Assembly: GCA_026770705.1 (NCBI GenBank)
Contig: JANJGN010000011.1
Location: forward strand, 148,118,001-148,182,000
From: Isurus oxyrinchus
Lineage: Eukaryota
Length of the DNA stretch: 64,000 nt
Direction: 5' to 3'
Numbering within the stretch: position 1 is the first letter of the stretch; every line of letters begins with the position of its first letter. The notes under the pieces were generated by a model. The model saw nothing but the letters and a program-made list of their open reading frames with translations, searched no databases and was not told where the DNA came from. This document shows positions 61,935 through 62,418 of this stretch, in pieces. Position numbers and translations under genes: made by a program.

Positions 61935-62418
61935 CAGAAACAAAAATACCTGGAAAAACTCACCAGGTCTGACAGCATCTGCAGAGAGAAGCACAGTTAA
62001 CGTTTCGAGTCTGTATGACCCTTCATCAGAACTAAGACATAGAGAAATGAGATGAAATATAAGCTGGTAGAAGGGAGTGGGAGAGCTGGATAGAGGGCCA
62101 GTGATAGGTGGAGGCTAAGAGACTGTCAAAGATGTCACAGACTAAAGGACAAAAGGGTGTTGACAGTGGTGATATTATCTAAAGGATGTGCTAATGGGGA
62201 CATTAATGGAAGCAAGCTAGTGGCAGATGGCCCTAGTGGGGGTGGGGTGGGGGGAAGGGATCGAAATGGGCTAAGAAGGTAGAGATGAAACAATAGATCG
62301 AAATAAATTTAAAAATAGGAGGGAAAAGAAAAAAGTATAGTTGTAAAAAAATTATAAATGATTGGAAAAAGGGGGATCGGAAAGGGGGTGGGGATGGAGG
62401 AGAGAGTTCATGATCTGC
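61935..62418 (-). mobile_element. Penelope-like 3' UTR/pseudo-LTR upstream of CLN5
   Basis: Homologous to 55290-55760; probable TSD atttctc(c/t)taa at 61924-61934 and 62419-62429. Confidence 0.82.
61995..62033 (-). ncRNA. Minimal type I hammerhead ribozyme motif, core intact
   Basis: AGUU CUGAUGA A GGGUC-AUACA-GACUC GAAAC GUU AACU: helix I AGUU/AACU, 5-bp helix II, loopless AC/GU helix III. Confidence 0.7.

Follow-up and report, generated by a model that had tools for sequence, protein, structure and literature searches.

A minimal hammerhead ribozyme motif at the end of a truncated Penelope-like element upstream of CLN5 in Isurus oxyrinchus

Introduction

The pseudo-LTRs (pLTRs) of Penelope-like elements (PLEs) carry minimal hammerhead ribozymes (min-HHRs) that are distinguished by an extra nucleotide that falls between 9 and 10.1, a G10.1-C11.1 pair, a palindromic 15.2-16.2 segment, and a short helix I (Cervera and De la Pena 2014, PMC4209133). 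The accessible parts of that work count such motifs by the thousand in the coelacanth and Xenopus genomes, most of them solo copies, and describe monomers that were not cleaved and dimers that were cleaved weakly (PMC4209133). A later review cites Lunse et al. for dimer cleavage, and notes that the pLTRs of these elements can hold promoters (PMC6765202). In vitro cleavage rates are given as very low even for dimers (PMC4209133, PMC6765202). No shark is named in the searchable text and supplements of PMC4209133.

Three further systems lie close to the locus described here, as far as the accessible portions of the respective papers reveal. Endonuclease-bearing PLE units carry the C-terminal end of a GIY-YIG open reading frame (ORF) just upstream of the repeat, and show strong 5' truncation, an inverted truncated copy on the 5' side, and an optional 30-40-bp tail (Craig et al. 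2021, PMC8557442), all of which recur in the family described here. The Poseidon element PAc of Anolis shares with it a pLTR hammerhead and two alternative 3' ends, but belongs to another clade, has an ORF that starts within the hammerhead, and has been shown to need protein for cleavage (Frangieh et al. 2024, PMC11167929). No RNA-seq reads ending at the hammerhead cut site are reported for the anole PLE in that source. Non-LTR retrozymes, which like our motif involve a type I hammerhead and are PLE-related, have been reported in one cartilaginous fish genome (bioRxiv 10.64898/2026.07.22.740005). They comprise at least two consecutive tandem units with complete hammerheads, whereas the motif described here lies in a solo copy with an antisense twin.

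Results

The motif and its statistics

The window analyzed here is a 64,000-nt stretch of Isurus oxyrinchus DNA, and all positions refer to it. An original prediction made from the letters alone had placed an intact minimal hammerhead at 61995-62033 on the minus strand and ascribed it to a Penelope-like pseudo-LTR. Its reading of the letters and core nucleotides proved exact. From 62033 toward 61995, the core box C3-A9 (62029-62023) is followed by the extra A after A9 (62022, between 9 and 10.1) and by a helix II of 5 bp with one G-U (62021-62017 with 62011-62007), which is closed by G62021-C62007 as the G10.1-C11.1 pair. The segment G12-A15.1 occupies 62006-62003, the palindromic C15.2-G16.2 lacks a loop 3 (C62002-G62001), and U16.1 (62000) and U17 (61999) precede the predicted cut between 61999 and 61998. 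Helix II and the loopless palindrome were thus correctly described, and helix I, previously given as 4 bp, has four Watson-Crick pairs plus one U-G. The core boxes CUGANGA, GAAA, and UH and helices I and II are all present.

These features match the published min-HHRs in being type I, with intact core boxes, the extra nucleotide, G10.1-C11.1, a helix I of 4-5 bp, and a loopless palindromic helix III (PMC4209133). Helix II is 5 bp here versus 7-8 bp in the Schistosoma families of the same source.

A relaxed min-HHR descriptor had one match on both strands of the 64 kb, namely the motif at 62033-61995, compared with a mean of 0.02 matches across 300 dinucleotide shuffles; its strict form matched none of the 300. 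A hammerhead search had been proposed as a check on the prediction, and its outcome was divided: the descriptor recovers the motif, but an Rfam scan of the window at E up to 5 returned 14 matches and no hammerhead model among them. The motif is not more stable than its shuffles (z -0.97), its minimum free energy structure is a mispaired alternative, and the folding predictions contain no stable monomer fold with helix III. Judged by its letters, the hammerhead ribozyme motif at 62033-61995 is real.

The element that carries it

The motif belongs to the terminal repeat of a PLE. It sits at the 3' end of a copy of about 490 bp (61933-62420, minus strand), truncated on the 5' side, that retains the last ORF codons, a pyrimidine-rich 3' region, the hammerhead, and a short-type 3' end. 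This fragment is 70% identical over 502 columns to the copy at 55289-55758. Because family contigs from the DNA run X7 extend beyond 62416 into GIY-YIG C-terminal codons (with loose ends), the copy is cut off at the end of the ORF. It departs from the units of Craig et al. (PMC8557442) in keeping only the last codons, in lacking tandem direct pLTRs, and in having 40 nt of host repeat between the main copy and its twin. The window contains no intact RT-EN ORF between two direct pLTRs, as an autonomous full-length PLE would have, and retrozyme-like arrays of at least two consecutive tandem units with complete hammerheads were not found here.

The twin, which the original prediction had not mentioned, lies at 62474-62561 (plus strand), about 450 nt upstream of the hammerhead, within an older repeat. 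It corresponds to inverted repeat I3 (83 nt, 86%), is itself 5'-truncated, carries the sequence from helix II onward together with a short end, and would be antisense to the hammerhead in read-through RNA. It differs from the main copy at seven positions in 72 nt, and since the two share distinctive letters and the short end, they probably derive from the same insertion. Most published min-HHRs are likewise solo, derive from truncated PLEs, and in some cases form opposite-strand pairs at distances of 100-700 bp (PMC4209133).

Between the twin and the main copy lies a 40-nt remnant of an older host repeat (62434-62473), as seen by alignment to its copy at 60020-60200, and contigs of the empty site connect 62473 to 62566. 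Relative to the 60-kb copy, this host repeat has a 22-nt deletion; the PLE junction is untidy, and no target duplication is evident there. At the other end of the insertion, a contig of organism B reaches 61961, about 30 nt into the element, with a flank that is about 2% diverged. The 3' junction of the insertion therefore seems to be common to organisms A and B, with the hammerhead region of B lying beyond the contig.

A large family with many decayed relatives

Nine strong family copies were found among 13 nhmmer hits in the 64-kb window (E 1.1e-18 or better), and the window holds nine family motif matches against 0.40 expected. The long tail, an end with about 35 extra nucleotides, is present in four of the nine and the short end in five; three inverted pairs of 5'-truncated copies occur in the window. 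A copy at 55196-55810 (plus) has a broken GIY-YIG C-terminus, the 3' region, a hammerhead with U at position 6, and a long tail. In CLN5 intron 1, a copy at 58600-58891 (minus, sense to CLN5) has G12 changed to A and a long tail. Two palindromic twin pairs in the same intron each join a short end to a long tail, one inside the hammerhead core (58994-59210) and one with altered cores (60663-60915). The statement that nearby sister copies carry core mutations stood for these near copies; a diverged copy at 9846-10545 (minus) had been overlooked, in which a frameshifted GIY-YIG region (10545-10197) is followed by a hammerhead with intact core boxes (9907-9945). That hammerhead has a damaged helix II and palindrome, is closed by A-U instead of G-C at helix II, and fails the descriptor.

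The arms of the palindromes at 58994-59210 and 60663-60915 are 98% and 91% identical, respectively, and consist of head-to-head PLE ends; their joints fall inside or just before the hammerhead, and long hairpins are expected. Older decayed pieces of the same repeat end occur at 16491-16574 (minus) and 60623-60668 (plus), and a recent 112-nt tandem duplication (94% identity) lies at 57956-58165 in CLN5 intron 1. The three AUGAG-loop copies in which the 5' core box is retained all lack A6, with U at 55671 (plus) and 60770 (minus) and C at 60779 (plus). This loss may be a subfamily trait rather than decay. The natural A6C hammerhead variant cleaves poorly in magnesium (PMC7151607, PMC3088659), and the accessible text of these papers makes no mention of an A6U variant.

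Position 17 is U in three of the nine copies and C in the twin. The idea that U17 in our motif is a private decay of C17 was dropped given these three copies and the lack of a variant row there. A U at this position generally makes a slower cleavage site than C. The literature found, in its accessible parts, held no usable comparison of U17 and C17 rates (PMC3138052 included).

Eight protein relatives were found with the ORF end of the 10.2-kb copy. In tblastn, the ORF end at 55196-55291 has matches to relatives of the 9.9-kb ORF at E values as low as 6.9e-09, and both 55196-55291 and 10545-10197 match P0002 and other relatives with the ORF on the same strand as the repeat. Pfam GIY-YIG was matched by one of the eight relatives, P0002, at an E of 0.00087 that is below the curated cut-off; the other seven lacked this match, and several are chimeric gene calls. 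Pfam likewise gave no GIY-YIG match for the ORF pieces 10194-10478 and 7671-8219. Within 7600-8220 (plus), a 183-aa open frame has inverted repeats on either side, at about 7615-7660 and 8090-8135; we take it to be the GIY-YIG C-terminus of another PLE family. P0002 contains a CX2-5CXXC cysteine linker in a region that is absent from the window copies. Linkers of this type are described for Neptune and Nematis PLEs in the accessible part of PMC8557442, and the family is likely Neptune-type, a clade assignment drawn from the sequence of relative P0002 alone. The reverse transcriptase domain is represented in the window by a piece of about 22 residues at 55.1 kb that has no profile match. This piece is presumably PLE RT-thumb-like.

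The family as a whole is very large. Summed X7 contig depth over 61914-62066 is about 27,000-98,000 times that of the unique flank, a value that does not give copy number and is therefore taken just as a sign of a very large family. In contigs of the compared runs, no other letter reaches a row of at least 10% inside the motif, so the motif agrees with its closest relatives. Contigs from runs guessed to be RNA have summed family depths of 14,000-83,000 over 61965-62015; family RNA is accordingly plentiful, and partners in trans may exist. Pattern scans for further copies gave none in viral contigs and none in metagenome contigs.

Taken with the published min-HHR traits, the PLE 3' end context and the GIY-YIG relatives speak for the pseudo-LTR identity first proposed. 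The sequence comparisons support the assignment of the motif as the minimal hammerhead of a truncated Penelope-like copy, and it represents an additional example of a published motif type, in a very large repeat family.

Survival of the core without selection

At 5-6.5% divergence, the probability that all 15 core nucleotides remain intact is 0.37-0.46 per copy, and the probability that at least one of five copies has an intact core is 0.90-0.96. Thus, neutral decay would be expected to leave some copy of several intact, and selection is needless to explain the intact state. Retention of the core plus helices at 13-16% divergence would have a probability of 0.004-0.013.

Covariation was assessed in the six of nine copies that retain the 5' half. 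In these, 93% of cells are paired (100% in helix II), with a single two-sided change, the A-U pair that closes helix II in the 9.9-kb copy; with only six copies, 175 of 500 shuffles were as high as the observed covariation.

Predicted folding in different transcripts

The following results are equilibrium predictions, and helix II or a dimer could form co-transcriptionally, although the twin is transcribed first. The duplex between the hammerhead and its twin is predicted at -138.5 kcal/mol with a probability of about 1.0. For RNAs that start at or above 62500, the catalytic 3' half pairs with the twin at a probability of 0.996-0.999 in all five starts tested, and helices I and II are predicted at 0.0. 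Because the twin would pair with the whole ribozyme in RNA from above about 62500, the proposed cutting of read-through RNA would be blocked. The inverted twins of PLEs are thus predicted to silence their own ribozymes.

Transcripts that start at 62060-62470 do not include the twin, and for these helix II is predicted with a probability of 0.15-0.86. Helix I stays at or below 0.05 in all 11 start contexts modeled; in a separate folding set it reached about 0.8 in one 470-nt context. For the homodimer, the active double-hammerhead fold (-12.1 kcal/mol) lies 6 kcal/mol above the best, mispaired fold (-18.2 kcal/mol).

A cut at 61999/61998 would require a second intact core, since in the published fold each core of a double hammerhead would cut the site of the other copy. 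As for a partner in cis, the descriptor with zero core mismatches accepts none of the remaining copies in the window. Allowing one core mismatch adds only the 55.7-kb copy, which is on the opposite strand. The boxes of the 9.9-kb copy are intact, but its helix II is damaged and it lies at a distance of 52 kb.

CLN5 and its transcript start

The gene downstream was identified as CLN5 by Pfam PF15014 on two minus-strand ORFs, which belong to later exons (E 1e-80 and 5.9e-30). Exon 1 spans 61347-61514 (minus), with RNA contig starts at 61505-61514, the ATG at 61453, and the donor GT at 61346. The ATG is 545 nt from the predicted cut, so the hammerhead is indeed located about 540 nt upstream of the CLN5 start on its sense strand, as first reported. 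On the plus strand, exons at about 15700-33000, one tested ORF of which had no Pfam match, are presumably the 3' part of MYCBP2, the usual vertebrate neighbor of CLN5.

In all three RNA-guessed runs, which come from three studies, the exon-1 contigs stop at the donor on one side and at 61514, 61511, and 61505 on the other; a DNA contig continues past the latter ends to 61961. This comparison covers four of 24 listed runs, the three RNA runs are guessed as such, and contigs cannot show starts, so it gives a weak hint that the main CLN5 transcript starts about 485 nt downstream of the predicted cut. The three runs leave 61557-61913 without contig cover, which proves nothing alone. One X15 contig (111 nt, depth 7.3) aligns to 61434-61514 and has 30 further letters beyond 61514. 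Because the site at 61514 is an AG, these letters could represent a minor upstream exon; they are possibly a library adapter ending in G's, in which case the start would be 61511. Between the hammerhead and exon 1, a CpG-rich stretch (61601-61900) has observed/expected CpG ratios of 1.02 and 0.77 in 200-nt windows, compared with 0.26 window-wide, and is likely the CLN5 promoter.

Discussion

We consider it most probable, at roughly 0.88, that this minimal hammerhead ends a truncated PLE copy of a very large repeat family and is a passive, non-cutting leftover upstream of CLN5. As published PLE biology suggests, two motifs in an active tandem transcript would pair through the ACGU palindrome, probably helped by the element's protein, and each core would then cut the site of the other copy. 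Reverse transcription truncated at the 5' end likely gave rise to the copy at 62420-61933, probably together with the inverted twin in a single event, and brought it to a site some 430 bp upstream from the CLN5 start. There it would persist as a monomer that lacks helix III and has no partner with an intact fold in cis. The twin is predicted to pair the motif off in RNA from above about 62500, and the intact state of the motif would need no selection.

Other readings of the locus carry little weight. An unselected copy might occasionally be cut in trans if RNA starting at 62470-62034 paired with family transcripts, whether or not PLE protein took part, at a low rate and with no consequence for CLN5. 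We regard this as improbable, given that the mispaired dimer (-18.2 kcal/mol) is 6 kcal/mol more stable, that helix I is at most 0.05 in 11 of 11 contexts of one folding set, and that U17 is generally slower than C. Because the twin would be missing from RNA with a start within the element, and family RNA is plentiful, trans cleavage might still happen on rare occasions. The core and palindrome are intact, family contigs abound in the RNA-guessed runs, and at -12.1 kcal/mol the double-hammerhead fold is, in formal terms, stable. Published precedent cuts both ways, with protein-assisted cleavage shown for the anole PLE (PMC11167929) and promoters possible in pLTRs (PMC6765202), but with very low in vitro rates even for dimers (PMC4209133, PMC6765202). 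More speculative is that the insertion now serves CLN5 as a domesticated RNA switch that depends on the start site. Starts inside the element would expose the hammerhead, which on pairing with family RNA or an intron-1 copy would be cut, and starts above the twin would fold it into a long duplex and let the transcript escape; we think this very unlikely. A chance arrangement of letters unrelated to ribozymes is next to negligible. Although the Rfam hammerhead models miss the motif and neither its fold z-score nor the covariation in six copies is significant, none of 300 shuffles matched the strict descriptor, four published min-HHR traits that the descriptor did not demand are present, and the fixed position in a PLE 3' end largely refutes this idea.

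The original prediction went on to suggest that the hammerhead could cut upstream-initiated or read-through RNA entering CLN5. A co-opted copy of this kind, insulating or tuning the gene, is a very doubtful prospect. Its appeal comes from the location of the motif on the sense strand, with the RNA contig starts about 485 nt further downstream, from its being the sole motif in 64 kb that passes the descriptor, from a junction seemingly common to organisms A and B, and from one X15 contig that carries, at an AG site, 30 letters of unexplained origin. Against such cutting, the main CLN5 contigs start about 485 nt downstream (a weak hint), the twin is predicted to sequester read-through RNA in a duplex, and a partner in cis with an intact fold is missing from the window. 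With several copies present, one left intact by chance is to be expected and, because the family is so large, a position near some gene is unremarkable. Domesticated genic hammerheads reside within a transcript, are low-copy, and have stable folds, whereas the motif upstream of CLN5 is part of a high-copy repeat, has no helix III, and appears to be located upstream of where the main RNA begins. With the Clec2 3' UTR and RECK intron examples (named in PMC6155905) it shares a place near a host gene on the sense strand. Published min-HHR monomers, moreover, were not cleaved, and dimers were cleaved weakly (PMC4209133).

If co-option were true, a retroelement minimal hammerhead would regulate a vertebrate host gene, one whose human counterpart is a lysosomal disease gene, and the locus would provide an in vivo test of min-HHR cutting. 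For the passive leftover that we favor, the state as found matters little, as it would add one copy of an already published motif to the many that fill the genome. In a family so large, finding the core intact close to a gene does not signal function.
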